Assembly (NCBI GenBank): GCA_900128565.1 | Contig: LT635936.1 | Span: 1-39,882 of the forward strand | Reading direction: 5' to 3' | DNA length: 39,882 nucleotides | DNA from: Stramenopiles sp. TOSAG23-6 | Taxonomy: Eukaryota | In this document: in pieces, positions 2,279-23,358 of the stretch | How positions within the stretch are numbered: position 1 is the stretch's first letter | How the letters are laid out: each line of letters begins with the position of its first letter | Program-made: the position numbers and the translations under genes | Notes under the pieces: model-generated | What the model was told of the DNA's origin: nothing | The model's input: the letters and a program-made list of their open reading frames with translations, nothing else | The model's database searches: none

Positions 2279-4962
2279 ATGAGCATGAATAATGCTGACC
2301 ATATACCTGTTCAGCGACAATTTAGCGAGCAAGGTTATGAAAACAGCAGTGAAAGTAAAGGAAAAAGCTTCTCAATAGTCAAACCTAAAAATGACCGTGT
2401 GTCGGCAAAATTAAGAGATGCTTCTACGAGAGGGAGAATTGAAAAGAATCTTCAACCTGCAACATCATTTAAATTACTTGAACCTAAATCGTCCCGTGAT
2501 CGTTTGCGTAACAAAAACCGAAGTTTATCTGAAAATGGCGACGTATATTTAGACTATTTGACTCTGAACTTCGTTGATGGTTCCATAAGCGGAATGGCAA
2601 GTCTTTATATTACAGAAATAGAATTAAAATATAGGCAATCTCATGCATATAACTATGCGAGTACTTTTGCGTGGGTGTATGGCGCACTTGCTGTCTGGCA
2701 ACTTCTATATATAATTCTTGGTTTACTTATTATTTTCCAGGGAGAAGTTCATAATGAATGTTATTCCAGGAATATTTATAGCGTATTATTTTCATTTTCT
2801 GCCTGTTTAGCATTCTTAGCGACTGGTTTAACTTTAAAAATACAACCCCAAAATTTGTTTTCCTTTGGGAAAATGGGGGAAAGTACTCGATTACAATATT
2901 TTATCAGTGTCATGTGGATCTTTGTGACAGTAGGGTACAGAATCACATCAATGGAACTTCTTTGCGGTGGTGACGGAACTCCTAACAATGGTATTCGTGC
3001 AGGTGATATTCTTATGGTTGGATTGGGACAACAGAATATTATGTACTTACTCATGTACGTTTTCATCATTTATTATTCAATTTCAAAAAAAAAACATTTC
3101 ATACCAAATTTTGTACTAACAAATTCCAAATTTGACATATTTTTCACCAAAACATGGGCAGTTTATGCTCTGGTTTGCGGTCACCATTTGTGCTTGTCAC
3201 TTTGTGCACAATCAATTCGCTTAGTTGGTTGGAGAGTCTTTACTTTGCTTATCGACCAATGAATGATTATGATGTTATGAATTCAATAGACTCTATCCAT
3301 AACTCTCAGTTGTTACCCGTTTCTTCAACCAATAGAATTGTGCACAGCTTTGATTCTACAGAAATAAGGCAAAGTATTATCAATCTTGGAGTGGTATTAA
3401 TGGCATCATTGATGTGTTATTATATGGTTCGAAAACTTGACCAAATGAAAAGAAGTTCATTTCTCACTTTATGGCAATTGAGGGAAGCAAATGTACGTCA
3501 TGAATTTAAAATTTATTTGTTTTGTACGAAATTTTGTGCCAAAGGATTTCTTTTTGAGTTTTGATGGTGTATATTTAATCTAAATCATGAATGTAAAGTC
3601 ATTCCATAACGAATTCCTAATTGGATATATTTTTTCAAAACAAATATCGATGCTGATATACAAATAAATCCATTTGCAACGCCAAACTTACGAGCATGGT
3701 TAAGTGGTCGATCTAGTTTCCGTTTTTCGCACAATTCAAGTGAAAGAGCCTCTAGAATTGAAGCAAATAGACAATCTAGAAATTTAAGTAAATCTGGTTC
3801 CATACGTACAAATTTACGAAATTCACTTATTGATAATTCTCAATATTCTGAGAGAGGCTATAACGAAAGTAAAGATGGTACAAATAACTACAAGCTAATA
3901 TGGGATATTGAGAATAGTGGAAAATCATTAAACGACGATTCGTTTCAAAACAGAAATAAACAAATAGAAAAAAGCCGAGAATGGATGCTCCGACAACGGC
4001 AGAGACCGTCATTCAGAGGTGCAGTTCAAATCGATCACCAATGGCAAATAGAGTTTTCACGGTTAAATATTTTAGAAAAGGTTGCTTCAGGTGCTTCAGG
4101 TCAAGTATTTAAAGCAGAGTATCTAGGTGTTCCTTTAGCCGTAAAGCAAATCTTTTCCACAATGATTTCAGAAGATCTTGATGAATTTTCTCGCGAACTC
4201 TCACTCCTAGCAAAAGTTGACCGACATCCAAATGTTGTACGACTTATGGGCATAGCAAAGGAGAAACCAAAACAAAAATTACCACCTTCGTTATACATTT
4301 GTATGGAATGGGTTAATGAGAACATGGAAAAGTTATTGGAAGATTCAAAGCGAGCTCCGAAAGATCTCTCTCAAGTCAATGACCTTAAGATTGTACTGCG
4401 ATTAGCACAACAGGTTTGTGCTGCAATGGTTCATTTACATCGTCAACGATGTCTTCATCGTGATCTCAAACCAGCAAATGTGTTAATTACACCTGAAATG
4501 CATGTTAAAGTTTGTGATTTTGGTGTGTCAAATTTGGGCTCAAATATTTTCAGAAAGTCAAAAGGTAAACGAATGCAACTTGCTAGTGGTGTTGGAACGC
4601 CTGGTTATATGGCTCCAGAAATGTACAGTGCTGAGCCTGTCGTTGGCTTTGAAGCCAATGCAAAGGTAGATGTGTTTGCATTTGGAGTACTATTAGCCTC
4701 TTTATGTACCTCAAACCGACCATATGGCAATGAGATCTCAGAACTTTCCCAATGGTGGTCAATTGATCGCTGGACAGTAGCAATGCAAAATGAAGGTTTA
4801 GTACCATATCTCGAGCCTTCCTGCAAAGTACCCAAGCAATTAGCTGATTTAATAGGTCAGTGTTGTGATTTTGATCCGCTTAGTAGACCTTCTTTCAAAC
4901 GTATTTCGTCATATCTTGCTAGAATAAGTAAAACAAGTCTTCCTCGGGAAACACTCGAATGA
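2279..4962 (+). CDS. Multi-pass membrane protein with C-terminal TKL-type protein kinase; join(2279..3054,3156..3492,3646..4962), 809 aa
   Basis: Several hydrophobic helices in exons 1-2. Frame is open from 3610 to 4962. Kinase motifs ASGASGQV, LAVK, HRDLKPAN, CDFG, GTPGYMAPE and DVFAFG are present. Joined length 2430 nt is in frame. Confidence 0.8.
3055..3155 (+). other. Family intron, 101 nt, GTACGT...AACAT (in-frame AG alternative ends at 3161)
   Basis: Explains the frame shift between ORFs 2279 and 3154. Core ATACCAAATTTTGTACTAAC ends at 3120. CATG is repeated at both junctions. Confidence 0.75.
3493..3645 (+). other. Family intron, 153 nt, GTACGT...CAAAT
   Basis: Contains in-frame stops. 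Core GTACGAAATTTTGTGCC near 3524-3540; CATAAC ends at 3610. For the phase-0 donor, the first frame-compatible AG is the GAG at 3850-3852. CAAAT is repeated at both junctions. Confidence 0.7.
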
Positions 4963-5166
4963 GCAAGTATAATTGAACTTTGAGTAAAGAAACATAACTT
5001 TGCTCATCTGAAGTTTGTCAGTGAAAAACAATTCTTTTAATATACTATTACTATAAACTATTTCTGCAAGTGTTTTTATTTTACAAACCAAAGAATGGGT
5101 TTTCAAAAAAGAGTACTCTTAATAAACTTTGGTGGGGATAGTTTTCTCATATATTTGAAGACCATA

Positions 5167-7458
5167 TTAAAATCCAACAAATTCAGGATTTTTTATGTCT
5201 ACCGCCATCGTTTCTTCTCGGGTAAACTCACCTGTGATCATAGGGTTGTATTCAGATCCCATACTTTGAGTCATACGTACACTCGATTTTGTAAAAGCCG
5301 GTGGTTTATTGAAGGGTAAATTGTATTTTTTACTCTCCACTTTTTGCCAGATGATACCATCGAAATATTCATGCATTCTCAAGTCATCAAATCCGCCACT
5401 CATCATTCCTAAGCGGAGAGCAGGGTTTTTGTTGAGTAATGCAGTCACAAAACCATGAGTTGCTTTACCTTCAACGTTCGGGTGGAATGAAAGTGTTTTG
5501 TTACAATGTACAATTCGTGAAAACATAGTCATTTGATCTTCAGAAACAAATGGAGTTTGGTGGTGAATTAACTCATACGCTATAATCCCCAGTGCCCAAT
5601 AATCAACTGCTTTATTGTGACCAGTGGCAAGAATTATTTCTGGTGCCAGATATTCGGGTGTTCCAACAAGCGTGCTAGTTTTTGTTCCAGGTTTTATGCG
5701 CTTAGCAAAACCAAAATCAACGAGCTTTATGTATCCATCTTTGCAGAGTAAAATATTTTCAAGTTTTATATCACGGTGTGCAAAGCCTGCTTCGTGGACT
5801 CTCTTTAGCGCAGATGTCAAAATGGTGACATACACTCGCGCCATACTTGATTGTAAACCCCCAAGCGAAGTTCTTGGAAGATTTTTAGATGCATACATCA
5901 AGTGCCACATATCACCACCAGCAATGTATTCGGTGATAAAGTACAAGGTCTTTTCGTCTTGCCAGGTTCCGAGGAGATCCATGATAAAAGTGGATCCCTT
6001 GAAGCAAATCAGTGCATCTCTCTCACGTGTAATGTTTTCTTCCTGATTTGTATCAAGTAGATGTGATTTATGAATAGCTTTTACAGCCACGTAGTTGCCG
6101 GTAGCTTTATGAGTAGCTAAATACACGTTACCATAAGTACCTGCACCAAGCTGTCCTTCACATTTATAATCTTTGAGTGATATGCGAATATCACACTGGT
6201 CGGGACTTTGTTCTGTCGCAATTATTTCACTGGTATTTGGTACTGCATTAATTAGTTCTTTCTTGAGTTTTACCAGTTTTTCATTGTGTGCTTCAATATG
6301 AGCTGCTTGTTTTGCTCTGTTCTGCTCCTCCCGCTCTATAACAGATTGTTCGATGACTTCTTGAGGCAGTAACTTAACAAAATCATCTGCTGTCAGCTGG
6401 AGGCAAACTACTGTAGTTGAAATTACGGTCACGGTTGCCATTCGTTTTGAAATTTTGTTGTCTTTAGACAGTAATGCCATCTCCCCGAAATGATCTCCTT
6501 TTCGTAATGTGGCCACGGGTACAGTACTTTTGCGGCGACTAATATTCTTCGGGGAACATTTTTTATCATAAGAGTTTTCTTGAGGTGTCGTCTTCGTATT
6601 ACGGCGGTCTGTTGAATCTGGAGAAACTTTTTCCCGTTTCCGACGAGAAAGTATGTTTGTCAACTTAGATTTCATATTTGTTCTTTGAGTTGCATCACCA
6701 TCAAGGTCGTTATTTTCATCATAGTTACAACGAGTAGAATCTTGTGCAACTGAACAGACACCATCAAACACTATGTAGAAAGAATCACCAGCATCACCCT
6801 CTGTAATAATTTTTGTCCCTTGCTTGAACTTCTTTTCAACCATGACATCAGTCAACGCAATCAATTGTAAGTGTGAGAGACTTGAGAGTAGAGTAACTTG
6901 CTTTAAAAACCCTAGAATCTCTACCTGGCGGGATGATGCACACTGATGCATCAAGGAGCGAAATATGGATCTTGTCATTACCCAAACTGTTCCAGGCAAT
7001 GAACAAATTACACTTGCAGTCCGTGGTAACTTTGCGTTGATCAAACCTGTTTCGCCAAAAGCAAATGGTGCACCAATTACACGTTCATCGTCGCCATCAT
7101 CACCTACCCTAATATTGACTTCACCTGATTCGAGCATGAAAAATTCCTCATTATGGGTTTCATCTTTTTGGATTAAGACGTCACCTTTATTTATATCTCT
7201 TTTGAACATTGCATCAATCATAGATCTAAGCTGATACAATTCAATTGCACGAAACAGAACGTGTTTACGCAAAGTTTCTAAAATGATTTCTTTCGTCTTT
7301 GAACTTTTCTCACCAGTAGACGTTGAACTTTCATTGACTTCATCTGAAGCACAATATATATTCTCGCGTGGACAAATTTCAGTCGCTGGCTTTTGCAACT
7401 TGATCGAAGCTCGGCTTTTCCTCGATGGTATATCGATTTTTTTTGCTGATTCCGTCAT
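5167..7458 (-). CDS. cGMP-dependent protein kinase-like (two cNMP-binding domains plus AGC kinase)
   Basis: FGETGL..PRTASV and FGEMAL..RMATV cNMP cassettes; GAGTYG, HRDIKLEN, DFG, GTPEYLAPE and DYWALG kinase motifs. First ATG at 7458. Confidence 0.9.
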   Translation of the reverse strand: MTESAKKIDIPSRKSRASIKLQKPATEICPRENIYCASDEVNESSTSTGEKSSKTKEIILETLRKHVLFRAIELYQLRSMIDAMFKRDINKGDVLIQKDETHNEEFFMLESGEVNIRVGDDGDDERVIGAPFAFGETGLINAKLPRTASVICSLPGTVWVMTRSIFRSLMHQCASSRQVEILGFLKQVTLLSSLSHLQLIALTDVMVEKKFKQGTKIITEGDAGDSFYIVFDGVCSVAQDSTRCNYDENNDLDGDATQRTNMKSKLTNILSRRKREKVSPDSTDRRNTKTTPQENSYDKKCSPKNISRRKSTVPVATLRKGDHFGEMALLSKDNKISKRMATVTVISTTVVCLQLTADDFVKLLPQEVIEQSVIEREEQNRAKQAAHIEAHNEKLVKLKKELINAVPNTSEIIATEQSPDQCDIRISLKDYKCEGQLGAGTYGNVYLATHKATGNYVAVKAIHKSHLLDTNQEENITRERDALICFKGSTFIMDLLGTWQDEKTLYFITEYIAGGDMWHLMYASKNLPRTSLGGLQSSMARVYVTILTSALKRVHEAGFAHRDIKLENILLCKDGYIKLVDFGFAKRIKPGTKTSTLVGTPEYLAPEIILATGHNKAVDYWALGIIAYELIHHQTPFVSEDQMTMFSRIVHCNKTLSFHPNVEGKATHGFVTALLNKNPALRLGMMSGGFDDLRMHEYFDGIIWQKVESKKYNLPFNKPPAFTKSSVRMTQSMGSEYNPMITGEFTREETMAVDIKNPEFVGF

Positions 7459-7783
7459 AGCGTTTACCAAGTATTATTTATTTAATTCTCTTCGAATAGG
7501 GAGTTTGTAATATTATTACTGGGTCGGAGATGAACTGAGTAAGCTTCATCGAAGCTTTAAACCCAAGGCATCTTCTTGACAAGTCCGGGTAAAAAAACAA
7601 AAAAAAAGTACTTTCTTCTTGAACAAACCTGTTTTTCAAATTGGCCTGGCCAACCATCAAGAAGGCAAGTCAGTCCCTAAAAATCATAAAAATCATAAGA
7701 GAAATTTATATTCTTGAATAACATTATTATTGGAGTTTGGAAGTCCGTGACGTTGTCAGGTGAATTGAGAAGTGAAAAAAAAC

Positions 7784-8593
7784 ATGTCAACGTCGTCAAA
7801 GATAAGTGGACAAACGTGTTATTTTTGCGGGAAAATTACACTTTCTGAAATGCGTTGTGGCGGTTGTCATATGGTTTGGTACTGCAATAAGACGTGTCAA
7901 AAAAAATCCTGGAAAGCTGGGCATAAGGAAGAGTGTGCCCAATTCAAGTCTCAAAAGAAATCTAAGGGAAAAGCACTACTGGATGCAAACGCTTATGACC
8001 GTCGGGGTGCACGGTATCTAGGAAAGAGGAAGTGGAAAAAAGCCGAAGCGGAGTTTAGAAAGGCTTTATCCATATTACCACCAAGAGTTGAAGGCGAGCC
8101 ATCCATATTTTTTGAAAATCGTGCCAAAGCTTTAAATAGTATCGCCTGTGCCTTAATACAACAGGGTCGAAAAACCGAAGCAGAGAAAACATTACGCCAG
8201 TCCTTGCAAGAGTGGCCTCAATATTATAAATCTTTGTTTGATTTGGCGCAATTATTCAAAATGAGGGGAGATATAGAAAGATGTTTTAGTACACTTAAAG
8301 AAGGGATTACAGTTGATTCAACATTTAAGCCTATGATCGATATGTTTTGTGGTATGGTATTTGAAGACGTTCAAACAAAAATGAAAACAGAACCTCAACG
8401 CGCCATAGAAGTTGCAAGAGATGCCGTGTCGTTACTTCCACAAAATGTAAAATTGCGAATGGTGTGTTCGACAGCCTTAACTATGAATATGCAATTCGAA
8501 GAAGCAAAGAATGAGATTGAAGTTGCCTTAACAATCGACCCGGGTAACCAGTCACTACTTTCAACACGGGCAAAACTTAACAAAATTATTTGA
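7784..8593 (+). CDS. MYND zinc finger plus TPR repeat protein
   Basis: CYFC...CGGC...YCNKTCQKKSWKAGHKEEC is a MYND finger; TPR-like helices follow (AEAEFRKAL, ALTIDPGN). First ATG at 7784. Confidence 0.85.
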   Translation: MSTSSKISGQTCYFCGKITLSEMRCGGCHMVWYCNKTCQKKSWKAGHKEECAQFKSQKKSKGKALLDANAYDRRGARYLGKRKWKKAEAEFRKALSILPPRVEGEPSIFFENRAKALNSIACALIQQGRKTEAEKTLRQSLQEWPQYYKSLFDLAQLFKMRGDIERCFSTLKEGITVDSTFKPMIDMFCGMVFEDVQTKMKTEPQRAIEVARDAVSLLPQNVKLRMVCSTALTMNMQFEEAKNEIEVALTIDPGNQSLLSTRAKLNKII

Positions 8594-8631
8594 AATTATT
8601 AAAGATATTATTTTGTCATATATTTTATTTG

Positions 8632-11438
8632 TTAGAAAAGCATTATCCACATTATTTGGTATACTATTGCAATCACACAGACAAACACTACTATCTTTCT
8701 ATGCTTCACCACGGTAGATCTGAGTAGAGAAGTTTGATGTGAAGATATCCAGCTTCCACAACGACCTAAACCATTTATAATAATAGTTTTGAATAAATTC
8801 CACAACCAATGAAGAGTCGTGTAACAAGCTTGCAGCATTGACTTTGATGGAACATTACTACCCACTTTTTTTAAGGTTCTAACAGATCCACAACATGGAC
8901 TAAATAAAGATCGCACGATAGAAAAGCAGGCATACATAAGTTTTATAAATGGACTGAGTGTAGATGACAAGATTTTCCATAAAATTGCACCGAGAGCAAT
9001 CGGAAACTGTGCTAATTGAGCTACCATATTATAGATCAACCGAATACCATGCCAAAGTACAATAAATAGACTATTTGAAGGGATAATAACAGCAAAAAGG
9101 GAAGTGATCCTTAAGACAAAAGTTTCTTCAAACCACTGGAACCATGAACCAAATAACCAAGTGAAAAAAACACGAACGATTTCAACTTTGGAAAATAAAT
9201 CATAAAGCCCAATAAACATCATACAAATAGATGCAACCCATACACCAACTACCATCAAAGTACGCATATATTGTGAAAAAATATTTCAAAAAAAAGTCGT
9301 TACGTACAAAATTTCGTACGAAAAAAAAACTTTGAAATTGAAAAAAAAAATAAAACATACATCCACCAACGGTAAAAAATACCATAACTATTAAGGAAAA
9401 TTGCCCAGCTTGGAAGACCTGACTCACATAACTGGGTAAGTTTATCGCTGCTAAGTACGAAATGTTTTACAACAGGGTGAACCAGAGGATCACGAAATCG
9501 AATTTGTACCATTTGATTAATAATTTTTTCCTTAACAGGTTCTTTCATTGAACTAAGAATTTCTTGTTGTTGTGTAGCTCCTGCAAATCTTCGGGAGGAC
9601 CATGCAACGACATGTAATATTGCTCTCTTTATCGCATTTAAAATTTTTCGTCTAACTCCTTCGTCTTGTAATAATTCCGCATTAATACGAAGTTTACTAC
9701 TACTAATTCTATGTTTTTTACGTCTCCGAATTGCCCTATTACCAATGTATTTTCCATGTGAATTTTTCCTTGCTTTATTTTTGAATTTCCTTTTCAATAA
9801 CTCATTACTCTTTAATCTATTATTTACAGAATTACTCGAAGATTCTTTCATACCTGAAGGATTTTTTGCATCACACGAAATATCCATTTCTATATTTGAA
9901 ACTAAAGATAGAGGTATATGACCTATAGAATCATCATTACTATCTATTCCTCTATTTGGTGTATGTGGAGACACACTTGATGATGAATCTTTCATTATTG
10001 GTGAAATTTTGTTTCCGTTATTTTCAGTTGGTGTTCTATCGAAATTGTTATTTTCTGCCAGAGATTTGGGACTTTGTACATTCGAATCTGTACTAAACGA
10101 ATTTCGAATTTGTTGAATACCCTTCCTTTTCTTTTCTGTTGAAGACTCTTCAAATGCAAATTCATTCTTTTGACTATCATTACGATTACTGCGATGAATA
10201 TTATTACCTGTGATATCATTCACTTCTTCATAAACACTTGGAGGAGTGAATGGAGAATTTGGTCGATTCGTACTCAAATCATTAGATGAATTTATATTGT
10301 GATTTTCTGATTCAGGGGATAGAGAAGTATATATGGAATGTTCTCTTTTCTTCGGTGGTTTTATCTTAGGTACTGGTACATCTTGTGTTTTTGGATTCCA
10401 ATGTCTCACTAATTCACCAGTTTCAATAATTATACTTCCCATCGAAGTTATTTCATTAGTATATTTAAAACCAAAAATTTTATCAACAGGAACGATAAAC
10501 AAAGTTTGTCCAATGTATGGGTGGAATGGTGATTCCTTGAGGTGCAATTTGAATGCTCTAAATATAAAAAAAATAACAACTGATCCAAAATATATCGAAA
10601 CTCGTATTGTTAAGTACATTACGACAAATACAGAAATAATGACTGACGACCAAGCAGGAAATATTGTAGTTAACCAATCGTCATCACTCAATTTTTCTGC
10701 ATAACGTACACTTATTATAACCTGCCCGTGTTTTCCTTTTTCGTCATCATTTGAATCATCTGGGGCTATTATTTCCATAGTAAGCTGTTGACCACCAGTG
10801 CTATTAAGTCTCCACAAGCCAACCTGAAATTCATCAATGGGTAGAATGTGTCGATCTAGAGACAAACCATACCAATCTTCACCGTGGCCAGTAGCTAACA
10901 AAAGTCGACTCAATAATTCAGGTCGCATAGAAGAAACTTGGTTGATGAGATCATCATATACGTCTTTTGGGCTAAATTGCTGTGTTCCTGGACTTCTAGG
11001 AGAAGTTGCCATCGAATCAATACTAAGGCGTCGACTGACACTTTTAGAACGACAAAACTGAGAAAGTTTCCGTATGCATTCAATATCAGCGTCTCGCTGA
11101 ATTGATGGATCACCTGCAGCTTCATACGCAAGCCAATCTGCAACTCTTTCACGAACGGCCGGAGAATTTGCCCAGTCAAAAGCCCAAGAAGCAGCCTTTG
11201 ACTTCAACACATCCAAATTACGGCCAGATAGCACTGGTGTGAAAGGATTATCATCATTGCTAAACTCATAGGGACTCGATTTAGACAAATCTGCGCTACG
11301 AGTGCTTGTATTTACATCAGAATTTGCATGTTTAGATCGATTTCTACGAGAAACGGGAGTTTTTACTGGAGTTGACGAAACGCCGTTCTCAGCTCGGTTA
11401 CGTTTTGAACTCAAACGTTTTAAAACGCCTTTGAGCAT
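8632..11438 (-). CDS. Conserved uncharacterised membrane protein; join(complement 9361..11438, 8632..9265), 903 aa
   Basis: Two ORFs are joined by a family intron, giving ESGLPSWAIFLNSYGIFYRWWMRTL...IGLYDLF. This resembles a motif I recall from uncharacterised plant proteins (GxPSWxIFxxSY..YRPWMRxL..IGFYDLY). Joined length 2712 nt is in frame. Confidence 0.7.
9266..9360 (-). other. Family intron, 95 nt, GTATGT...ATATAT
   Basis: Minus strand reads GGAT|GTATGTTTTATTT...TTCGTACGAAATTTTGTACGTAAC...TTGAAATATTTTTTCACAATATAT|GCGT. Splicing restores WWM-RTL. Confidence 0.8.
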
Positions 11439-11797
11439 CTTGAGAGCAGACAATTCCACAAAAGTTTTTACGAAGTTTCAGCTTTCAGTGAATGGTATTG
11501 ATAATTATCAAAAAGTAGATTGCAATGAGATTTGCATCATCAAAACATCCAAGAAACACCAAAGATCTTCAGTGAGATAGACTTCGAAATGATATTAATC
11601 CTACAAATTAAATTATAGGCGAGTTTTCAATTCGTATTTTTTTTATTTTTTCTTCGATTTGGGATTTCGTGTAAATACTACGATTAGGGTTTATTGATTG
11701 ATGTTTTCAAGAGTCAAGTATCATCAATAATATTATAATGACAGTGACATTGCTTTTTCTTAGCTTATTGTTTACATAGATTAGCTGGTTATTGTTA

Positions 11798-14700
11798 ATG
11801 AGCCAAAAGATGGAGCATAGGTTCCAAGGTGAGGGTGTTTCTTTTAATGTAACGCAGAGTGGTTCTGTTACAACTTTGTGGTCTTCTACAGCACGTTGCT
11901 TGACTATTAACTTAAGAACGCGGGAGTTATTTGTCGAAATGTCTGTTTCAGGTTCTAAGGTGCACAAGAGTTATCCAACATCTGGTTTAACAAAGTTGAT
12001 GCCTGGTAAATCCCCTGGTTCTTTAAGTGTCAGTGTGCGTAATGAGGGTAATAAGGCTTTAAAAAAGTATAAATTTCGCGACAGTGCTAGTCGAAACACA
12101 TTTTGCAAATACATTCGATGCGCAAACCAATATGGCTATATTGTCGAGGAGTTGTATCGGAATTGTACGAATTCTTCCGAAGAACACACTGCGAGTAATA
12201 ATAGTTTATGTCCCGCTATAGATATATTTGATGACGACTTGTTATTAAAGGGTATATCGCGACTTGGATTCTCGAATCCTTCCACTCGTAAAGAACTCAG
12301 TGATTTAGTATTTCAGTTACGAAAAGTTGGTACAAAAACATCAAAAAATCTATTAACTGATAAACATTCTATTGATAATTTTCCTGTGATTACATACCGG
12401 GATATTTTTGATATATTCTGTCATTTAGTTATTGAAAACTCGATAAATTCTGGATATGGGAAGGGAAATTCTGAGAATGAATACGAAAATAGTGGGACAA
12501 ATGATTCTCCTGGTACATTTCAGAATTTGACTGCTTTAGGTCTTCAACTGCCTAAACAGGATTTGATTCCAGGAGAAAATTTTGATGAATTTCTAATTTA
12601 TGATCAAGTTTCATTATTATGGTGGCATATGTTCCCTGAAGGTAAAAGACAAGTATATGTCCATGGTCGACTTTTTATTACGCAATACCGTTTGGTGTTT
12701 CTTGCATTTAAAGCACTTCCAAGAACTTCAGGTAAAGCATCTGAAAATAGTGGAATTCGAAGATTATCAGAGGTAGCAAGTGAAACTCTTCAAGCGGAAG
12801 TACCCCTCTCTAATGTCAATTATGTAAGACAACCTCGCGATGATCCTACGTCTATTTGTCTATATTGTAAAGATCTTCGGTCTTTGACTTTTACGTTTAA
12901 CGGTTCTACAAAAGTTGTGGATAATTTTGTGAGTGTTTTGGAAAATCGAATATATTTTGAATATTTACCTAATTCGATCAAAGATTTGAAGATAGATGAT
13001 ATAAATTCAAATTCAAAAATGAATCTTACAAATGAGAAAAAAATTAAAAATTGTGAAGGTACCCGAAATCAAAATAATCTAGATAATAAAGTATTTGCAT
13101 TTATGCAACCTACACCAAAACAAAATATATGTTTAGGAAGAATACGTGCTGACACAAGGGGAAAAAACAGTACAAGGCTTCCCGACTTTTCATCTGAATG
13201 GTATTTTTTATTTTTTTTCAATTTTTGAATTTATTTTTCATACGAAATTTTGTACCTAACGGATTATTTTTTGAAATATTTTTCCAAAATAGGTCTTCAT
13301 ATAATCCCATAAATGAATTTCATCGAATGGGTCTCTTAGATATTTCAATGCAGGAAACATCGAATCAAAAAGATAATATTTTTGATCTTTCTATTTCATC
13401 CAATCCACAAAGTGAGACACCAAACTCAACGAGAAACAACGTTCATAATTCATGTAATTTAAATGTAAATAGAAATGACCTCGAATTTTCAGTACCACAA
13501 AATCATTCTCAATGGCGTTTGTTTCATAATATTAATTTTAAAACAAGTCCAACATATCCTGAATATTTGATCATACCCAACACGCAACTTTTCTCAGATG
13601 AAGATTTATCTGCTGTATGTGCGTGGAGATCAAAAGCGAGATTTCCAGCTGTTACGTGGCATTGTCGTAAAAGTGGTGTTATTTTAGCTCGTTCGGCAAT
13701 GCCATTGAGAGGTCGAGCAGGTATGTCAAATTGTAGAGCTGATGAAAATCTTTGTGACATTTATCGAAAATCTGTGATAAATAGTTATGGAAGTACCACT
13801 CATGTAAATACTGAAAATAAACAAAGAATATCTCCAAAAACTTATATGAAAACACCAGGTAAACCTTCAAATAGACGGCGGATTTTTGGTAGTAAATGGA
13901 ATCCAGATTATGAAACTTCACGAAATCGATCAGTAAGTCAAGAATCACTTTCTAGTACTCCAGCATTTGTGGTGATAGATTGTCGTCCAGCAATTAATGC
14001 AAAAGCAACACAGATTATCAAAGGCGGGGGTGAAGAAAAAGCTTCAAGATATCAAAATACAACTTTAGAAAGGCTATATATAGAAAACATACACGAAATG
14101 CGTAATTCCCTTGTTGAGCTTGCAAAGATATGTCTTCCTGGTTCAATAAGCGATGATGATAATAATTGGTTGTCAGATGTACAAAATACTGGTTGGTTGC
14201 GGCATATCCGGATGGTATTGGCAGGATCTGCTCGCGTCGCTCAACTACTTATTGCAGAAAATACATCTGTTTTGGTTCATTGCAGTGATGGATGGGATAG
14301 AACTGCTCAAATATGTGCTACAGCTCAGTTGTTAGTTGATCCGTACTATCGTACTCTGGAAGGTTTTGGCGTCCTAGTAGAAAAAGATTGGTTGTCATTT
14401 GGCCATAAATTTCATGATAGAATAGGACATGGTCAGCGACCAAGAAAAGGTGACTATGTACATTTTCATCATTAGTTTCAAATTCATTTTGTTTTGTATC
14501 AAATTCTGTAACTAACAAACTTCAAATTTTATATATGTTTTACAAGATATACTCACGGTGGTGGTGGGTTCTTTGCTTCACGAGAAGCTTCGCCAATATT
14601 CACACAATGGATAGATTGTGTCTGGCAGCTGACGCGGCAATTCCCTACTGCATTTGAATTCAGTGAAAGAATGCTCATCTTCGTTGCAGACATGTCATCC

Positions 14701-15109
14701 TCATGTCGTTTTGGTAATTTCTTATGTAACTCAGAACGAGAAAGATCAGAACTTAATGTGAAGCAGAAAACTCCATGTATCTGGTCATATATATGTAGCC
14801 GAAATCATCATAGGAATAACAAATCAAATCGAGAACTTTTTAGTAATCCATGTACGTAATCATTTATTATTCATTTCAATTGTTTTTTGTACCAAATGTT
14901 GTACCTAACGAATTTTAAATGTAACAATTATTCCCAAAAGTACATGCTATCGAAAGGTGGATAGACCATTGTATCCCTCCACTTCACCGAAACGATTAGT
15001 GCTGTGGGATAAATTGTATCTTCGATTCGACCCAGCCTTATCCATTCCCGGGTCCGATGATGAAACTTGGGAAGGTAAATCAAGAGTTTTATCTCCTAGA
15101 GCTAGGTAG
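11798..15109 (+). CDS. Myotubularin-family PI3P/PI(3,5)P2 phosphatase with GRAM-like domain; join(11798..13200,13293..14457,14551..14851,14946..15109), 1010 aa
   Basis: GRLFITQYRLVF (GRAM-like), WSSYNPINEFHRMG, RSKARFP, catalytic HCSDGWDRT, EKDWLSFGHKF, SPIFTQWIDCVWQL, FGNFLCNSERER, NPCY and LWDKLYLRF. Joined length 3033 nt is in frame. Confidence 0.9.
13201..13292 (+). other. Family intron, 92 nt, canonical GT-AG
   Basis: TG|GTATTT...ATACGAAATTTTGTACCTAAC...CCAAAATAG|G restores the conserved W in WxxY. Confidence 0.9.
14458..14550 (+). other. Family intron, 93 nt, GTACAT...GATAT
   Basis: In-frame stop at 14473-14475; ACTAAC ends at 14516; the AG at 14545-14546 is out of frame; TAT is repeated at both junctions. 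A 135-nt canonical alternative (14450-14584) exists. Confidence 0.65.
14852..14945 (+). other. Family intron, 94 nt, GTACGT...TACAT
   Basis: Restores NPCY (myotubularin NPxY). CCTAAC ends at 14909; CATG is repeated at both junctions. A canonical alternative (14856-14940) gives NPCTTCY. Confidence 0.7.
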
Positions 15110-15220: not shown

Positions 15221-18200
15221 TTATAAATTTAATTTTTTTAAGGCTTCCTTCCATGATGCAGAGAGGCCCCAGGTCTGATCATTCTCTTCTAAAAATATCT
15301 CCACTGGAGTTCCATTAAAACGAATTCGATCTTCAGTCTCCTCCAAATATTTAAGCAAATTAATTTTCTCTTTGTCAAATTCTCCAGCGGTATCTGCCCT
15401 AGACTTCAAATTGATTTGAATCCATGTACACATTCGTTTGATTTCAGCTTGTTGCATTTGCATAATAGCAATCGATTGAACTCTAGTACGTTGCATTTCT
15501 AATTGTTTGTCAGTCTGTGTGACTGTGCATACGTGTCGAACAGCAGATTGAAGAGCCACCAAATAGTATGAACTTTGACCCGTGCAACCATTTGGCTGTG
15601 ATCCGTAAACCATAGCCCAACGAAGAGACTCCGGGAGATTTGGGGCTTCACAGTGCACAACAGCAGCAATAAGAACTGGTAGGAGGGAATCTGCTTCAAG
15701 AAGTTTTCGCGCCTTGCTGTTATACTTTTCATTCTCTTGATTAGAGTTGCTACTTTTACTCTCTTGAATATCCTTGTGTTGGGACAATGCATCATTAACT
15801 TCATCATGTGCAATCTGCACAATACAGAGAAGTAAACGGAGCATGCGCATGGGTACTCGGCATTGGGAAAAGTATGTTAGGGCGAGTGATGTGCGAGGAA
15901 AAGGACTAGTCGGTCGGAGCATACATATTTTGTCATTGGTAGGATTCCCATCGAATGAAATAACTGTGTCCATTTCAACTCCATTGCCTTCCCAACGCTC
16001 ATCAGACATACAAAACTCTCTAGGTACACCTAATTCTTCTGGTGTTAAAAGTCGCATCCAATGCTGTTGTTCAAGCCATACTCGATTATCGCCAGATCGA
16101 CCATTATCGCCCATTGTAGAGGCCACTGCCGTAGCAGCTATAGTAGCACTTTCCTTAATAGCGCTGCAACAATATATCAAACCTTCAGAGAGCTCATACA
16201 GTGCTTTCAAAATCTGCGGAGTTTCTATATCGAAATCATAGGCAATAACATCTCCAAGAAATGTTGCAACCATTGGAATCACTTCAACCAGAGAACTAAT
16301 CTTGGCTGCGGCCGTATTATCTTCATTTTGAAGATGAATATTTGTCGCAAGATGCTGCAATTGTGCAAGTAGTCTCTCTAATAATTGGCCCTGTGGATTT
16401 CTTTTGTCAACAATCAAAGAATTAAATACTTTTTGTATTTTTTTCCATTGTATTTCCTGATTAAGAATCAAAAGATTTTTAATATCATCACCTTCACGTT
16501 TAGGTCCACCATGAGGTACCGGAGGTCGTTTGTTCTCATTTGAATTTTGGCAATCGCTACGAATACTGCTATTTTGTAGTGTAATCGCCTTTTTCACTAT
16601 ATCAGAAAGTTTTGCACGACGTTCATCAAATGATAATGTTTGAAGTAAATATCGCGAATCATAAACAGCTTGGTCAGCATCACGGAGCTGATTATGTATC
16701 TGTAGTATGGACTCCGCAAGCGACATGATTGCAGTATCGTTGCTTAAAAGTGCATTTTCATTTAGATAAAATTCGACATTTATCATACATAAATCTGAAT
16801 CTTGTGCTTCTTGTGAGTTCAGAGAAACTCGTTCAAGTGATTGCTCACTCGAACCTTCATTGCATTTTCGTTTAGCATTTGATGCAATAGCAGCCACAGC
16901 TGCAGCAGCCACAGCATTTCCATCGCTAGCTGCTTGGAGGATATCAATATCTCCAACTGGAGTTGCGTATACAGAATTTGTGCCATATTTTGCTTCAGTA
17001 GAAGCAGTCATTGCAGTTATTTCATGTATTTTGCTAGCAATTATAGATCCTGCTAGCTTTTCACCTTGCATGAGCAGTTCCAGGTGTTGAATGAGCATTG
17101 CATTTCGAGATTCTAAACAGGGAATTTGACCCAACTTTCCCCAATCTGATAATATTTTTTTCTGTGCGTTCCATAAAGTTTTTGCATTCTCAAGCGTTGA
17201 TCGAATAGAATCCCACACTTTATGCCTCTTTTCTAATGCCAGACGCAATTCTTTATCATATGCTGTAAGGCGTAACGCATCGGTTTTATATTTGATACAA
17301 AATGATAATTTATCATTTATCGTAATATTTTGTTCTTGGGTTAATTGGTTTCGAGCGACCTCAATTGCATCAGCCGAATTTCCTCTTCGGACATCCAAGT
17401 CATCACCTAATTCAACTAAAATCGGAGATGCTTTTATGTCTGCATCTCCAATTACAATATCACTAGCAGAGATGTGTTTTGGTTTAGAATCTAGAGAATT
17501 TTTGTGCAATAATTTCCTAGCCCAGTTTTGCGCTTTCTGTGCAGTTGCTGCGACACCACGAGCTACTTCACCCGCCATCTTTTTCATGGTTTCTCTGTTT
17601 GATGAATCTACTGTAGTTGTTGTATTTGTCAAAAAGACATTGTTTGGGTTCAGATTATTGCAATGACTCTTCAACGCATCATATCCTAAATCAGCAACTG
17701 GGATCAAAAGTTTTTTGATATCTTTCCTTAATTGGACTAACAATCTCAATTGCCTCCGCCTTAATTTTTTATTTCCATTAGAATTAATAGTTTTTGTTCC
17801 CTCAAACATTTCTCTACTCGTTTGTTTAACAATGTCTACGACCATATTCTTTGAAGCAGTTTCTGTACAAGTAATTTCAATGTCTTCGAATAGCCAATGT
17901 GCACTAGCAACAGTTATGTAATAGCTTTGTTTTTCGTCCGGGAGAGCTTGAAAATATTCTCTTTTTCTTGGTGGCATATCTGTTTCGGTAAATGATGTCA
18001 ATCCAAGACCTGAACGACCAGCTTCAAGAAGCTTTTTGAATGTAGAAACAGTCTGTATTTGAAAACGATGAAGTCCACCAATGCCACGCTGTTTCAGCAG
18101 CTTTAGTTGTCTTATCTGGTCTCTTGGGGATACCATTTTCTTTTGATATACATAATCATTTGAACTTGCAGATGCCATAGCCATTGCGATGAGATCGTCG

Positions 18201-20599
18201 CCTTCCACAATAGGCGTGTCATTAACACGAATGGGGTGTATATACTGAATTGGTACACTAGACTCATAATCACCATCATCATATCGAACTGCAACAGTTT
18301 TCAAGTCGGGTGACACATCACAGATAAATCCAGGATATATATCTTCTAAATTGTATTCCCCATTTTCATTCCAATTTACTTTAACGCGCATTCCCCTTTT
18401 TAAATACTTAAGTGTATTATGCCTTTCTTTATAATTAATATTCTCAACTTGTTGCAAAGGAAGTTCTTCTTCATGTTTTATAGAGCTCGTGGTTGAAGCA
18501 AGGGCGACAGTGGTTCCTATAGCATTTGACACCTCTGCCTTCGAAATTACTAAACCTTCAAACAACTTCACTTCATGAGTATCAATTGTAGTGCTAGATG
18601 TAGTTTCTTCTGCTGCATTACTTTCTTCGTTACCTTCTTCACGTCCAACTAAAAGTCGTTGTTCTTGCCAAGCCATCATATTTTTCTGGTGTTTTTCTCG
18701 TTTAGTTGTTCGTTCTGATAATGAAGTATTATTATCAAGTAACCATTGTATTGCTCTGGTAATGTCACCATCGGCATTTTTAAGGGCTACAATTCCTAAA
18801 TCTTTCTCAAAGCCCATATCTACGAGAGATTCTTCCAATTCGTGTTTGACTCTATGTTGCTTTGCGTTCAGAAGATATATCGCCGCTTCATTTTCATCAC
18901 CTTTACAATGTATCAATGCGTCACTACATTCGTGAATTGGAAAACCAAGATCTGATAATCGTCGAGAAGATTCCAGACGACGAATTTCCTCTACTACTGT
19001 ATTAGAATAAATACTTTTAGGTTGAATATAATCATCACTCCCAGTATCAGAAGTATGCTCGTTGCTAGTAGTGGTGTCGATACTTGTTTCACTGAGAATA
19101 CTTCCTGGTGTACCACTCCTATGAATGCTTACAACCGGTGTATTGGAGCGACTACTTTGAGGGCTTCCTATATATCGTTTAATTACATCAAACTGAATCT
19201 CGCGACTACTTTGACGTCTATGATGAGTTGGAGACACGACTTGTCTGTCTAGTTCTTTTATACTTGGCGTGCCACTTCTAGAATTGCTCACAAAAGGTGT
19301 ATTGGGGCGACTACTATGAGGGCTTCCTATATATTCTATAATTTGATCCAACTGAATTTCGCGATTATTTTGACTTCTACGATGACTTGGAGACACTACC
19401 TGTCTGTCTAATTCTTTTTTACTTTCATTATTTTCACTACTGTCTTTACCTTTAACAAGCTCAGTTCCCAAAACTTCTGGTGGAGCAACCCATGTTGTAT
19501 TGCCTGTAATTGTATGTTCATAATATGGAAAAGAAGAATTTGGATCTATTTGGACTGTCCAACCACCTGCCAGTGGTCGAGGCCATTGCGATTCTCCTGA
19601 TAATAGATTCAAATAATATGGTTCCCCAGATGAAACATCTCTCATTTCTAACCAACCATCAGCCACTGCATAAATTGGATGCGAATTACCCAATTCAGTA
19701 TTCCAGTTCCATTCATCTGCAGTTTCAAATGGATTTGTACTTTCGACTGGATTTACCCATTGGCTCTCATTAGTTACTTGATTAAAATAATATTTGTTCC
19801 CATCATCATCTAAAAGTTCAATCCATTCCGATGAATTGTCATTTGGAATATTAGTCGTCATCTTTAGATCATTGTTGCTTTTCGTAGTAGTATTTTCTGT
19901 AGTAGAAGTAGCACTTGATATTGCAGTAGCCGAGTGTGTAGATTCATCATCAATTGCTGTTACTTGATTATTTGAAGTTCTTGGTGGCCTTGGAGGGCGA
20001 TTCATTGTAGTTTCAATGAGTTTTTCATTTAGAACTTTTGGGGAGGCTACAGGTAAATTACCCATTGCATCATTTAGGTTTTCATTTAGAACTTGTGGAG
20101 ATGCTAGAGGTAAATTACCTGGAGCATCATTTAGTTTTTCGATTACAACAGGTGGAGTTGCCAGAGGTAAATTGGCAGTAACATCATTTAATTTTTCATC
20201 TTTATTTTTATTAGCATGATGTGGTGACTGTGGTGGTGTCAGTTGTTCCAACATGGCTTTCACAAAAGAAGATCGGGGTGTTAGGGCATCTATTTGTTTT
20301 GTAAAGGTAAAAGGAACTTCTCCTACCTCATCGTTTCTTTCATTGAAAACAAGTAGCCACTGGGGATCACTTGGGTTAGGTGTACCAACGAGAAAGTCAC
20401 CGGATTGAACTGACAGTTCACTCGGCTCCTGAGCGTCAAAGTCATAAAGGACCAAGTATCGTTTAGGCTCGTGAGAAGCACTATTACTAGTACTTTTGTG
20501 AATCTCTGGTGGCACTATTGTGTCTTTGCTTGCATCTGTAACACCTGTTAAGTGTTCCTTGACAACTTTCTTCAAGTCAGCTTTACTTTCTTTCGCCAT
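15221..20599 (-). CDS. Large multidomain VPS9 (Rab5 GEF) protein with SH3, three WW, two UBA and a Tudor-like domain
   Basis: LYDFDAQEPSELS..W..GEVP (SH3); W..YY...WxxP three times (WW); LSDLGF and LVDMGF (UBA); VAVRYDDGD (Tudor-like); EADSLLPVL...GQSSYYLVALQSAV (VPS9). Intronless, 1792 aa. Confidence 0.85.
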   Translation of the reverse strand: MAKESKADLKKVVKEHLTGVTDASKDTIVPPEIHKSTSNSASHEPKRYLVLYDFDAQEPSELSVQSGDFLVGTPNPSDPQWLLVFNERNDEVGEVPFTFTKQIDALTPRSSFVKAMLEQLTPPQSPHHANKNKDEKLNDVTANLPLATPPVVIEKLNDAPGNLPLASPQVLNENLNDAMGNLPVASPKVLNEKLIETTMNRPPRPPRTSNNQVTAIDDESTHSATAISSATSTTENTTTKSNNDLKMTTNIPNDNSSEWIELLDDDGNKYYFNQVTNESQWVNPVESTNPFETADEWNWNTELGNSHPIYAVADGWLEMRDVSSGEPYYLNLLSGESQWPRPLAGGWTVQIDPNSSFPYYEHTITGNTTWVAPPEVLGTELVKGKDSSENNESKKELDRQVVSPSHRRSQNNREIQLDQIIEYIGSPHSSRPNTPFVSNSRSGTPSIKELDRQVVSPTHHRRQSSREIQFDVIKRYIGSPQSSRSNTPVVSIHRSGTPGSILSETSIDTTTSNEHTSDTGSDDYIQPKSIYSNTVVEEIRRLESSRRLSDLGFPIHECSDALIHCKGDENEAAIYLLNAKQHRVKHELEESLVDMGFEKDLGIVALKNADGDITRAIQWLLDNNTSLSERTTKREKHQKNMMAWQEQRLLVGREEGNEESNAAEETTSSTTIDTHEVKLFEGLVISKAEVSNAIGTTVALASTTSSIKHEEELPLQQVENINYKERHNTLKYLKRGMRVKVNWNENGEYNLEDIYPGFICDVSPDLKTVAVRYDDGDYESSVPIQYIHPIRVNDTPIVEGDDLIAMAMASASSNDYVYQKKMVSPRDQIRQLKLLKQRGIGGLHRFQIQTVSTFKKLLEAGRSGLGLTSFTETDMPPRKREYFQALPDEKQSYYITVASAHWLFEDIEITCTETASKNMVVDIVKQTSREMFEGTKTINSNGNKKLRRRQLRLLVQLRKDIKKLLIPVADLGYDALKSHCNNLNPNNVFLTNTTTTVDSSNRETMKKMAGEVARGVAATAQKAQNWARKLLHKNSLDSKPKHISASDIVIGDADIKASPILVELGDDLDVRRGNSADAIEVARNQLTQEQNITINDKLSFCIKYKTDALRLTAYDKELRLALEKRHKVWDSIRSTLENAKTLWNAQKKILSDWGKLGQIPCLESRNAMLIQHLELLMQGEKLAGSIIASKIHEITAMTASTEAKYGTNSVYATPVGDIDILQAASDGNAVAAAAVAAIASNAKRKCNEGSSEQSLERVSLNSQEAQDSDLCMINVEFYLNENALLSNDTAIMSLAESILQIHNQLRDADQAVYDSRYLLQTLSFDERRAKLSDIVKKAITLQNSSIRSDCQNSNENKRPPVPHGGPKREGDDIKNLLILNQEIQWKKIQKVFNSLIVDKRNPQGQLLERLLAQLQHLATNIHLQNEDNTAAAKISSLVEVIPMVATFLGDVIAYDFDIETPQILKALYELSEGLIYCCSAIKESATIAATAVASTMGDNGRSGDNRVWLEQQHWMRLLTPEELGVPREFCMSDERWEGNGVEMDTVISFDGNPTNDKICMLRPTSPFPRTSLALTYFSQCRVPMRMLRLLLCIVQIAHDEVNDALSQHKDIQESKSSNSNQENEKYNSKARKLLEADSLLPVLIAAVVHCEAPNLPESLRWAMVYGSQPNGCTGQSSYYLVALQSAVRHVCTVTQTDKQLEMQRTRVQSIAIMQMQQAEIKRMCTWIQINLKSRADTAGEFDKEKINLLKYLEETEDRIRFNGTPVEIFLEENDQTWGLSASWKEALKKLNL
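19110..19420 (-). repeat. Two-copy intragenic duplication of about 53 codons
   Basis: KELDRQVVSP..REIQ.D.I..YIGSP.SSR.NTP..S..SGTP occurs twice; the DNA copies are visibly similar. Confidence 0.8.
20020..20200 (-). repeat. Three-copy intragenic repeat of about 57-60 nt
   Basis: (K/N)LNDxxxNLPxA(T/S)PxV occurs three times. Confidence 0.75.
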
Positions 20600-20616
20600 T
20601 CTATATTTTAGTTAAG

Positions 20617-20789
20617 GCATGTAGCTTGTGAACTGAGAGAGTTATCAGCGAACATCAATTTTCTTTCCTTTCAGTTTTAACAGACACAGTATAGTAGTAG
20701 TTATTGCATGTAGCTTGTGAACTGAAAGAGTTATCAGCAAACATCAATTTTCTTTCCTTTCAGTTTTAACAGGCACAGTATAGTAGTAG
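20617..20789. repeat. Tandem duplication of an 84-bp unit (20617-20700 and 20706-20789)
   Basis: GCATGTAGCTTGTGAACTG...CACAGTATAGTAGTAG occurs twice with 3 mismatches, just upstream of the VPS9 gene ATG. Confidence 0.9.
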
Positions 20790-20963
20790 TAGGTAGTATA
20801 CCTACTATATAGCTACAGTAGTAGGTAATTACAAATTTGAAATTGACAGTTACTTTACTACTTTTTGGTAGCAAAATTAATTTTGAAATTTCATCCATAA
20901 AAAAAATTTAAAAAAATATAAAATTCATGGGTGGGTTCTTTATTACTATAAAAAATATAAGTA

Positions 20964-22316: not shown

Positions 22317-22536
22317 ACTATTATGAATTCTAAGCTTCAAACATAAGGGATGATACCAGAGTAATAAAATGTAATCATATGTATATAGATGTTATTATTG
22401 AACCTAAGTGATTTTTTTATCTCCAGATAGCGTTCACTACTATCTCGGTATATTATTCATTTACAATATATGAATGATATTAGTAAAAAGTTACGTGCGA
22501 GATATCCATATCTCCGATCTTGAAATAACGGGTGAA

Positions 22537-23358
22537 CAGGGTTGCATGGGCACGGCCGTTCCGAAGAATTTTTCGGAACGGGCAAAAATTTTATTCCCGT
22601 TCCGGAATGATTTTTCGGAACGGGCAAATATTTTATTCCGTTCCGAAATGATTTTTCGGAACGGGCAAATATTATATTCCCGTTCCGGAATGATTTTTGC
22701 AGATTTCGCGGAACGGGCAAATATTATATTCCCGTTCCGGAAGAATTTTGCGGAACGGGAATGGACCGGAACGGAATGAAGCTTTTGTTCCGGTTTTGTT
22801 CCTTTTAAACCCTAACCCTAATAATTTCGAATTTATTTTTTTCGTACGAAATTTTGTACCTAACAAAAAAATCAAAGTTTTGGAATATCGCCCGTGGACA
22901 AATCTGCTCAGATTTACCCGACTACCTTAACAAAAAAAAATCACAAAAAAAATTTCAAAAAAGAAATCTCATAGTAGTATCACGTGAACATTGTAGTATA
23001 AATGAATACTAGTAAAAAGAAAAGAATCAAAAATAAAATTTTATCTTCAAATTTTGATTATCCATAAATTAAATAGGCAAAATGTAATATTTCATTTTTG
23101 TGCCCGTTCCGCCGTTCCGCACTCTAGTGCGGAACGGGCAAATATTTTATTCCCGTTCCGAAATGATTTTTCGGAACGGGCAAATATTATATTCCCGTTC
23201 CGGGCAGATTTTGCGGAACGGGCAAATATTATATTCCCGTTCCGAAAAATTTTGCGGAACGGGAATGGACCGGAACGGGAACGGAATGGACCGGAACGGG
23301 AACGGAACGCAGTTTTGTTCCCAAAAAAATCAGCGAAAATTGTGCCCGTGCAACCCTG
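22537..23358. mobile_element. Non-autonomous hAT-type DNA transposon (MITE), 822 bp
   Basis: TIRs CAGGGTTGCATGGGCAC (22537-22553) and GTGCCCGTGCAACCCTG (23342-23358) match at 16/17. Perfect 8-bp TSD CGGGTGAA at 22529-22536 and 23359-23366. Subterminal arrays of CGGAACGG/CCGTTCCG; no transposase ORF. Confidence 0.92.

Follow-up and report, generated by a model that had tools for sequence, protein, structure and literature searches.

GT-AT introns of probable transposon origin in a MAST-3-like stramenopile, with an acceptor apparently set by the element's own 3′ box

The terminal AG of introns is among the most conserved signals of eukaryotic genes, and the stretch of DNA analysed here, 39,882 nt of contig LT635936.1 from Stramenopiles sp. 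TOSAG23-6 (hereafter the window), raises the question of how an intron's 3′ end may be found where that signal is missing. Several short introns of the window share a hairpin-like core joined to the branch motif CTAAC, and an earlier, sequence-only reading proposed that their acceptors may be chosen by distance or structure rather than by scanning to the first AG. We found that this motif is the centre of a family of introns of about 95 nt that fills the genes of a MAST-3-like stramenopile, and that most of the sampled introns end in AT. With a probability of about three in four, we read them as U2-type GT-AT introns that descend from a transposon and in which the 3′ box of the element itself determines the acceptor.

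The window's coatomer beta protein shares 89% identity with a EukProt entry under the label GSMAST32, which we take to denote a MAST-3 stramenopile, and at most 52% with all others among the matches listed. Matches to the 25-nt core number four in the window at up to three mismatches, where shuffles lead one to expect none, and 7,158 in the 21.1-Mb assembly at up to two mismatches, with none in the reversed control; the latter figure is not a copy number, as the assembly is redundant and contains duplicate contigs. Family members have the anatomy exon NT / GTAYGTTTT ... T-run ... TTYRTACSAAATTTYGTACCTAAC ... T-run ... TTTTTYCAMAATAC NT / exon. The sample for closer study comprised the window itself, 30 loci with an exact match at their centre and 80 pieces of 10 kb each, in total 922 kb including overlaps; some of these pieces had been picked because known matches lay in them. 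Starting from the core, 270 matches yielded 196 introns with both ends, of which 149 were informative. Detection from the ends alone by weight matrices, which gave 343 hits versus 6 in reversed sequence and replaced a loose-pattern detector discarded as noisy (2,143 candidates), led to a second set of 249 copies: 198 informative, 180 in frame, 168 of these with a core at up to seven mismatches and 165 of those without N. Excision from GT to NT preserves the reading frame in 135 of the 149 core-anchored and 180 of the 198 end-detected introns, with one third expected by chance. Among the 180, donors are GT in 167, and the acceptor ends are AT in 146, TT in 9 and GT in 5, while AG, the hallmark of U2-type introns, terminates only 10; the last three bases are CAT in 123 and TAT in 23. 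Outside the family, a crude search of the same sample gave three candidates for ordinary GT-AG introns, one of them convincing.

The copies in the window, and the gene that hosts three of them, are as follows.

1-54, + strand: 3′ half of a family intron, with the branch motif GTACCTAAC at 4-12, the end ...ACAT at 54 and a spacing of 42 nt; its 5′ half lies beyond the window, and the frame is open onward to 1380.
3055-3155, + strand: family intron GT...AT, 101 nt, with AT flanks, a branch motif (variant of GTACTAAC) ending at 3120, 35 nt from motif to end and a broken hairpin 5′ arm.
3493-3645, + strand: probable degenerate family intron GT...AT, 153 nt, with a hairpin-like core at 3520-3544 and TAAC at 3607-3610.
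9266-9360, − strand: family intron GT...AT, 95 nt, core 9299-9323, 33 nt from motif to end; the only short window intron with the palindrome and a complete stem.
11798-15109, + strand: gene for a myotubularin-related phosphatase (PF06602, E 1.6e-83; homologs found), host of the three introns below.
13201-13292, + strand: family intron with canonical GT...AG ends, 92 nt, core 13236-13260, 32 nt from motif to end.
14458-14550, + strand: family intron GT...AT, 93 nt, with AAG at 14544-14546 bypassed, a decayed hairpin and 34 nt from motif to end.
14852-14945, + strand: family intron GT...AT, 94 nt, with AAG at 14938-14940 bypassed, ends GTAC...GTAC and 36 nt from motif to end.

Much of what the sequence-only reading had measured could be reproduced, including the six distances from motif end to intron end (35, 35, 33, 32, 34 and 36 nt), the 58 to 66 nt from donor to motif in the five short introns, and the two AAGs lying 4 and 5 nt ahead of the proposed ends; the partial copy at the window's start is a seventh member. 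Excising 3055-3155, an intron also detected from its ends alone, fuses the frames 2282-3054 and 3156-3492, and excising 3493-3645 as well gives an open frame of 808 codons to 4962 for a membrane protein kinase (Pkinase domain match). The latter intron has 12 further in-frame candidate ends, and 3645 was picked as the presumable one for its family-like 3′ box; its distance of 35 nt is measured from a TAAC that no hairpin precedes, and its hairpin is not followed by TAAC. Removal of 9266-9360 opens a frame of 916 codons (11477-8635), and in 13201-13292, which terminates in AG rather than AT, the GT...AG cut is the only one that preserves the frame.

That the acceptor is not simply the first AG after the branch motif, as had been suggested from the two AAGs, is borne out by the myotubularin gene. 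Splicing at the AAG of 14544-14546 would end the frame at 424 aa and splicing at that of 14938-14940 at 507 aa, and it is with the AT/AT joins alone that homology reaches the C-terminus, extending to residue 541/542 (blastp against 120 myotubularins). A transcript-derived full-length protein was not found for this gene, the best match having 65% identity over 23% of the query. The sample agrees: an AG stands within the stretch from motif to end in 51 of the 168 validated introns, and 34 have all of their AGs that end at least 9 nt past TAAC out of frame. Use of the first AG, which the sequence-only reading had named as one outcome that would tell against it, was thus not seen, and we reject a first-AG rule. 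A rule by which the first YAT after the branch is used was also rejected, given that at least one YAT lying at least 9 nt past TAAC is bypassed in 152 of the 168 introns. Since both AG and YAT are bypassed, the acceptor is not found by scanning to the first AG or the first AT.

Direct evidence of removal comes from RNA at another locus (L098), of which ten RNA runs held small parts; four of them, X1, X2, X3 and X6 from three studies, were examined. A joint skipping exactly 105 nt, the predicted intron of an Hsp90 gene, is present in runs X1 and X6, which belong to two studies, and the X6 contig matches over 342 nt with no mismatch; in this intron, an internal TAG is bypassed and the spacing is 43 nt. 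Run X1 also has a joint skipping 107 nt, from GT to AT, with an internal CAG bypassed and a spacing of 40 nt, in an intron with unlike flanks and a decayed hairpin 5′ arm. Both joints, found in three contigs of poly(A) RNA, coincide with intron ends predicted beforehand. It could be argued that the joined RNAs stem from element-free DNA alleles, many copies being either harmful insertions that are not spliced or artefacts of the assembly. This explanation can draw on the fact that no DNA run was examined, on unspliced contigs in the RNA libraries and on an assembly with duplicate contigs and Ns, but it would leave unexplained why copies lie in sense orientation within conserved genes, Hsp90, kinesin and myotubularin among them, and restore the frame exactly in the proportion given above, why U1 matches the donors (see below), and why diverged copies with unlike flanks restore frames too, one of them joined in RNA. 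We find it scarcely credible. As a separate observation, the cores of the L098 introns are matched in X2 and X3 by contigs of the RNA libraries that number in the hundreds and have a summed depth in the thousands; these may be other copies present as DNA, as pre-mRNA or as excised introns.

If not by scanning, the acceptor might be positioned by a hairpin beside the branch site or by a fixed distance from the branch, as the sequence-only reading suggested. Fixed spacing of this kind, short and tight, occurs in U12 introns and in Giardia, Trichomonas and Yarrowia. Our family is like these systems in having a strong branch motif and unlike them in that its spacing runs from 31 to about 50 nt in two peaks. 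The six window introns do fall at 32 to 36 nt, but the distance over the 168 validated copies is broad and bimodal (median 37 nt, quartiles 33 to 42, peaks at 33 and 42; 68 of 168 at 32 to 36 nt), an outcome that had been named beforehand as speaking against a ruler; the window happens to contain the short-spacing class. Nor is the spacing from donor to motif any looser, with quartiles of 57 to 62 nt and a median deviation of 2 versus 4 nt for motif to end (Levene p 0.08). What remains of the ruler is a sharp floor near 31 nt, below which lie 5 of the 168 copies, three of them with likely misplaced ends.

The hairpin fared similarly. The consensus folds into a 6-bp stem adjoining CTAAC (−4.4 kcal/mol, z −1.79), and AAATTT in the loop region is 93 to 97% conserved, but none of the eight stem pairs exceeds column shuffles (smallest p 0.07 in 165 copies), and a lack of covariation was another result announced in advance as unfavourable. 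The closing G-C pair is retained in 91 of 165 copies (shuffle mean 90.5) with A-C in 56, and the C-G pair in 110 of 165; the arm overlapping the branch motif is 91 to 99% conserved, the opposite arm 55 to 92%. In 160 whole introns, the mean pair probability of the stem is 0.25 to 0.35, and one third of the 18-mers are unfolded. The earlier description of the core as hairpin and palindrome claimed more structure than there is: the palindrome TTCGTACGAA occurs in one of six window introns, its sole two occurrences in the window being at 9313, within intron 9266-9360, and at 22841, outside any intron; the two 8-nt arms abut directly and cannot pair throughout, the actual fold being a stem of 6 to 7 bp; and whole-intron folding of the five short introns gave a complete stem in 9266-9360 alone (z −2.72). 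The two introns with RNA support, at 43 and 40 nt and one of them without the 5′ arm, also stand against both proposals, which we regard as largely refuted already and very unlikely, although a lower limit on the distance may still apply. Acceptor choice requires neither hairpin nor ruler.

Given that AT commonly stands on both sides of these introns, the cut can be slid by 2 nt, turning GT...AT into AT...AC with the upstream AT intronic, as in introns of the minor spliceosome; U12 introns tolerate non-AG ends, and the 105-nt RNA joint permits this placement. The codons tell the two registers apart. In introns at third codon positions, the base at −2 is other than A in 23 of 52 when the upstream copy is read and in 4 of 52 when the downstream one is (p 3e-5); the upstream proportion at codon positions 1 and 2 is also lower, at 26 of 128 (p 0.002). 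This asymmetry indicates that the upstream dinucleotide is exon. In two introns, the alternative register creates a stop codon, which places the upstream copy in the exon as well, and the 107-nt joint, with its unlike flanks, has GT..AT as its leftmost placement and so excludes a left shift. Pairing with the U1 candidate described below is 9.2 of 11 in the GT register versus 3.4 in the AT register. We rejected membership of the U12 type for the GT register and for a donor with GT at +5/+6; a U12 match was not found either, a weak negative from a search for this one minor-spliceosome snRNA. To the AT-AC alternative as a whole we give almost no weight.

With the register settled as GT-AT, the flanks can be read. 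They are AT/AT in 113 of the 180 introns, and the match never extends beyond 2 nt; 11 of the 15 acceptors of the types TT, GT and CT are identical to the upstream dinucleotide, which shows that some of the family, at least, did arise with a true duplication of 2 nt. The insertion context leans towards C-AT-G (C at −3 in 36%, G at +1 in 51%). The synonymous drift seen in the upstream copy suggests that many copies are old, and if so, selection is the probable reason for the conservation of their ends and branch motif. As for the copies ending in AG (10 of the 180 sampled, and intron 13201-13292 in the window), the upstream dinucleotide is a different one in 8 of the 10, a pattern suggestive of a canonical end acquired later, by conversion.

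The assembly contains a full-length U1 candidate (E 7.5e-12, 54.1 bits) that begins AAACGUACAUG, where the Rfam consensus line has AUACUUACCUG; three bases are changed. Against the donors (CAT/GTAYGTTT), it forms 9.16 of 11 Watson-Crick pairs, or 10.12 with G-U, versus 6.88 for the Rfam consensus, in the GT register only, and the duplex is computed at −9.5 versus −1.8 kcal/mol. G5 reads the C or T at +4, A9 the exonic T and A2 the T at +7. Thus, the U1 5′ end appears altered to match the family's donors, and the splicing machine seems adapted to them. By comparison, the branch-pairing region of U2 (GUAGUA), the U5 loop and the U6 ACAGAGA are as in the Rfam consensus; CTAAC, conserved at 91 to 99% per position, is complementary to this unchanged U2, its branch nucleotide being a prediction. 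A candidate ordinary intron at L107, with the donor GTAAGT, TACTAAT and TAG, has an A at +4 that mismatches the changed U1. The genes for U5, U2, U1 and U4 lie head to tail in one cluster of 640 nt with gaps of 2, 23 and 5 nt (L074:9-645; G000:C1146, duplicated in C6122), an arrangement that suggests a single precursor transcript.

Where such introns came from is a further question. Three properties expected of introners were found: many similar introns at unrelated loci (the 7,158 core matches and the 249 end-detected copies in the overlapping 922-kb sample), a locus-specific target-site duplication (the flank counts above) and removal from RNA, the last for two introns in three low-depth contigs from two studies without a DNA control. 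The termini, GTA(Y)...(A)TAC, are complementary over 3 to 4 nt, or 6 with the flanks, and the centre of the hairpin (its loop) lies near the middle of the intron, with medians of 46 nt to the donor and 48 nt to the intron end, a position that would fit a foldback element with its centre of symmetry there. The same symmetry allows the thought that the two intron ends pair with each other as a terminal inverted repeat and so join the cut sites, as in the non-conventional introns of euglenids. The complementary ends GTAT...ATAC (ATGTAT...ATACAT with flanks), the central hairpin and the folding of intron 9266-9360 as a single long stem would suit this idea, whereas the terminal 6-bp stem has a mean probability of 0.28, the pair +4/−6 is a C-A mismatch in 75 of 180 introns and C-G in only 4, the same donor bases are complementary to U1, and a strongly conserved branch motif is present. 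We therefore consider end pairing very unlikely, and rejected membership of the euglenid type for the low end-stem probability and the strong U1 match.

Elements that carry the core or its symmetry without being introns also exist. The only exact core copy in the window is of this sort.

22840-22864, + strand: exact core without donor or 3′ box, hence not an intron, inside an 822-nt element at 22537-23358.

This element, presumably hAT-like, has terminal inverted repeats, an 8-nt flank duplication (22529-22536 and 23359-23366) and many internal palindromes, and the core stands at its centre, preceded by a CCCTAA repeat. In a Harbinger-like element (PF04827, PF13359; L117:1050-1090; G000:C2432, 2433, 2439, 2440), a copy of the core sits between the transposase and a second frame running towards it. 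The dyad GTAC-N8-GTAC is likewise found solitary, without intron ends (L039, L043, L059, L064, L084, L092, L093; window 36101-36126), and is sometimes tandem or a perfect palindrome; after the by-eye removal of 19 unmasked intron copies, 31 of 50 such dyads were left, versus about 10 for other spacings. The solitary dyad is possibly a DNA-binding site.

We therefore return to GT-AT introns of transposon origin and propose the following course of events. The family would have arisen from a small foldback DNA transposon and would be removed by the major (U2) spliceosome. Insertion would duplicate a 2-nt target, usually AT, with the element bringing its donor and its branch motif and the duplicated target, in its downstream copy, serving as acceptor, such that excision restores the mRNA exactly. 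The U1 with three changed bases, whose pairing we computed, would bind CAT/GTAYGTTT including the exonic AT and fix the 5′ cut before GT. Unchanged U2 would pair with CTAAC, so that the GTACCTAAC half of the core would be conserved as branch site, and the other arm would be a decaying relic of the element's dyad symmetry. The 3′ cut falls, by frames and by the two RNA joints, 2 nt past the terminal ATAC, at a distance of 31 nt up to about 50 nt from the branch motif and beyond earlier AGs and YATs; a pyrimidine at −3 and A at −2 are still preferred, and the last base alone would be relaxed, most simply through a contact between G(+1) and U(−1).

What might relax that last base? The Prp8 glutamine at human position 1522 is reported to recognise the pyrimidine at −3, and the branch A to recognise A(−2) (10.1101/212811). 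In yeast that lacks Prp18, splicing occurs at CAU and UAU sites preceded by poly(U), for which a U(−1)/G(+1) pair was proposed (PMC10711555). Here, the alpha-finger of Prp8 is intact, including the glutamine, and we rejected Prp8 as the cause. The protein has private changes at human positions 1246, 1251, 1301 and 1416, shared by 0 of 49 non-redundant homologs and with no citable role; its changes at otherwise invariant positions (L121) cluster near 1246-1254, with a further divergent segment around 1440-1451. Of U2AF65-like genes, we found one. Tentatively, and with the odds somewhat against it, we suggest that loss or divergence of Prp18 and U2AF35 permits the AT ends. Because the prp18 mutant favours branch-proximal sites, which are avoided here, a factor that binds the terminal box would still be needed. 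An even bolder version, in which one transposon has retuned the major spliceosome (nearly all introns being element copies, U1 rewritten for the donor and the exonic half of the duplication, U2AF35 and Prp18 lost or replaced, and the terminal box setting the 3′ cut), is possible though doubtful; if true, it would represent a natural, genome-wide form of the yeast prp18 phenotype in a genome with a GT-AT majority.

Several points weigh against the reading that we prefer. The end models were trained on core-anchored copies, 18 of the 198 end calls break the frame, 10 of the 180 donors start with AT, and flank pairs are unlike in 67 of the 180 introns, 32 of which have a non-AT dinucleotide upstream and AT downstream. 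The RNA support consists of the three contigs, at a depth of 2.5 to 3.9, from a locus whose introns are none of the window's own. Joints were obtained for two of the five family introns there, the patchy cover of the other three being no evidence either way; unspliced contigs span the same junctions in X2 and X3, the 107-nt joint carries the flag 'between: not known', and the 105-nt joint is compatible with both GT-AT and AT-AC. As to U1, the candidate scores below the Rfam cut-off of 69.5 bits, its start position derives from the alignment, bases 4 to 8 are buried in pairs in the minimum-energy fold, and only 41 of 253 candidates were scored, so that there may be a second, ordinary U1. No relative's U1 was found with which to date the change: the pattern for the U1 5′ end gave 26 loci, none with an Rfam match, and the U5-U2 tandem pattern gave 0 loci in metagenome contigs. 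Searches run without a positive control, and thus weak, gave no candidate for Prp18 in an assembly whose completeness is not known (the PRP4-like domain led only to Prp4) and no U2AF35 among the 7 single zinc-finger loci read, of 16 matches. Lastly, no transposase with the family's ends was found by PF13359, the one transposase family searched, whose five hits are accounted for by the Harbinger-like element, present in four contigs, and by a second transposase.

Comparable systems have been described. The non-canonical U2-type introns of Fritillaria borealis and F. pellucida are transposon-derived, have AT as their commonest 3′ end (34% and 44%) and are removed by the major spliceosome (PMC13326754; PMC11282704). 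Our family shares with them the apparent origin and machinery, a YAY triplet both upstream of the donor and at the very end of the intron, and the frequent AT. In Fritillaria, donors are mostly non-GT (AG), U1 lacks strong complementarity and the U2AF genes are duplicated (same sources), in contrast to the prevailing GT donors (167/180) and AT ends (146/180), the changed U1, and the one U2AF65-like gene, with no U2AF35, found here. Given that one organism is a stramenopile and the other a chordate, the likeness would be convergent. Introners of the Chrysochromulina type also comprise many look-alike introns, with a donor carried by the element, an acceptor from the duplication and unchanged mRNA length, but have 4-bp duplications and no inverted repeats (PMC9860276), as opposed to 2 bp, short putative inverted repeats and a non-AG acceptor here; the introner 3′ sites listed as expected elsewhere are AG and AC (PMC12130899). 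As in our case, the U1 5′ end of Entamoeba and Mastigamoeba is altered to suit an atypical donor (10.1101/2022.06.08.495308). Such coevolved cases are rare, yeast and Giardia retaining a standard U1 despite a pyrimidine at +4 (same source), and unlike in those amoebae, one U1 change here matches an exonic base (the T at −1, from the duplication), a single repeat family is concerned and the ends are non-AG.

Deletion of prp18 in yeast offers another parallel, in that CAU and UAU, cf. CAT and TAT here, are the best-used non-G 3′ sites and are helped by upstream poly(U) (PMC10711555). In yeast, this is a low-level error of a mutant in which sites closer to the branch are used as well (PMC10711555), whereas here AT is the rule and upstream AGs are bypassed; loss of Prp18 in this organism is our hypothesis. 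ISL2EU elements resemble the family in a 2-bp AT target-site duplication and in terminal inverted repeats (PMC4482050), which are putative in our case, but have an A/AT/T target and ends that are usually GG (same source), compared with a lean towards C-AT-G, GTA...TAC ends and occasional N-T targets here. We rejected membership of ISL2EU, elements with THAP-DDE and YqaJ genes, for the target context and the GTA termini of the family, and because a coding partner was not found. We found no publication on this family or on a stramenopile with a GT-AT majority, in a search outside which most subscription papers lie; the portions searched of the supplements to PMC9860276 and PMC12130899 contain no MAST-3 row, and their other rows may bear on novelty.

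The preference for Y(−3) and A(−2) together with an unchanged Prp8 alpha-finger singles out one relaxed contact, and the family offers a testable case for the mutual adaptation of transposons and spliceosome. The U1 change is a direct handle, as it predicts the register. There is also a practical side, since prediction programs for which AG is obligatory will produce wrong gene models in this marine group, which is an abundant one. A family intron in the Prp4 gene (L131:1306-2853), which seemingly reads through in frame and without a stop, would escape gene finders altogether.

A few minor observations may be added. Some family introns (L059, L091, L077, L002, L055) hold telomere-like TTAGGG or CCCTAA repeats, and the branch motif itself includes CCTAA. 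Copies are unevenly distributed across the window, where very long intronless genes of about 1,790 and 978 codons (15221-20611 and 23550-26486) stand beside intron-bearing ones. Upstream of a long minus-strand gene, at 20613-20790, a direct duplication of about 90 nt can be seen by eye.

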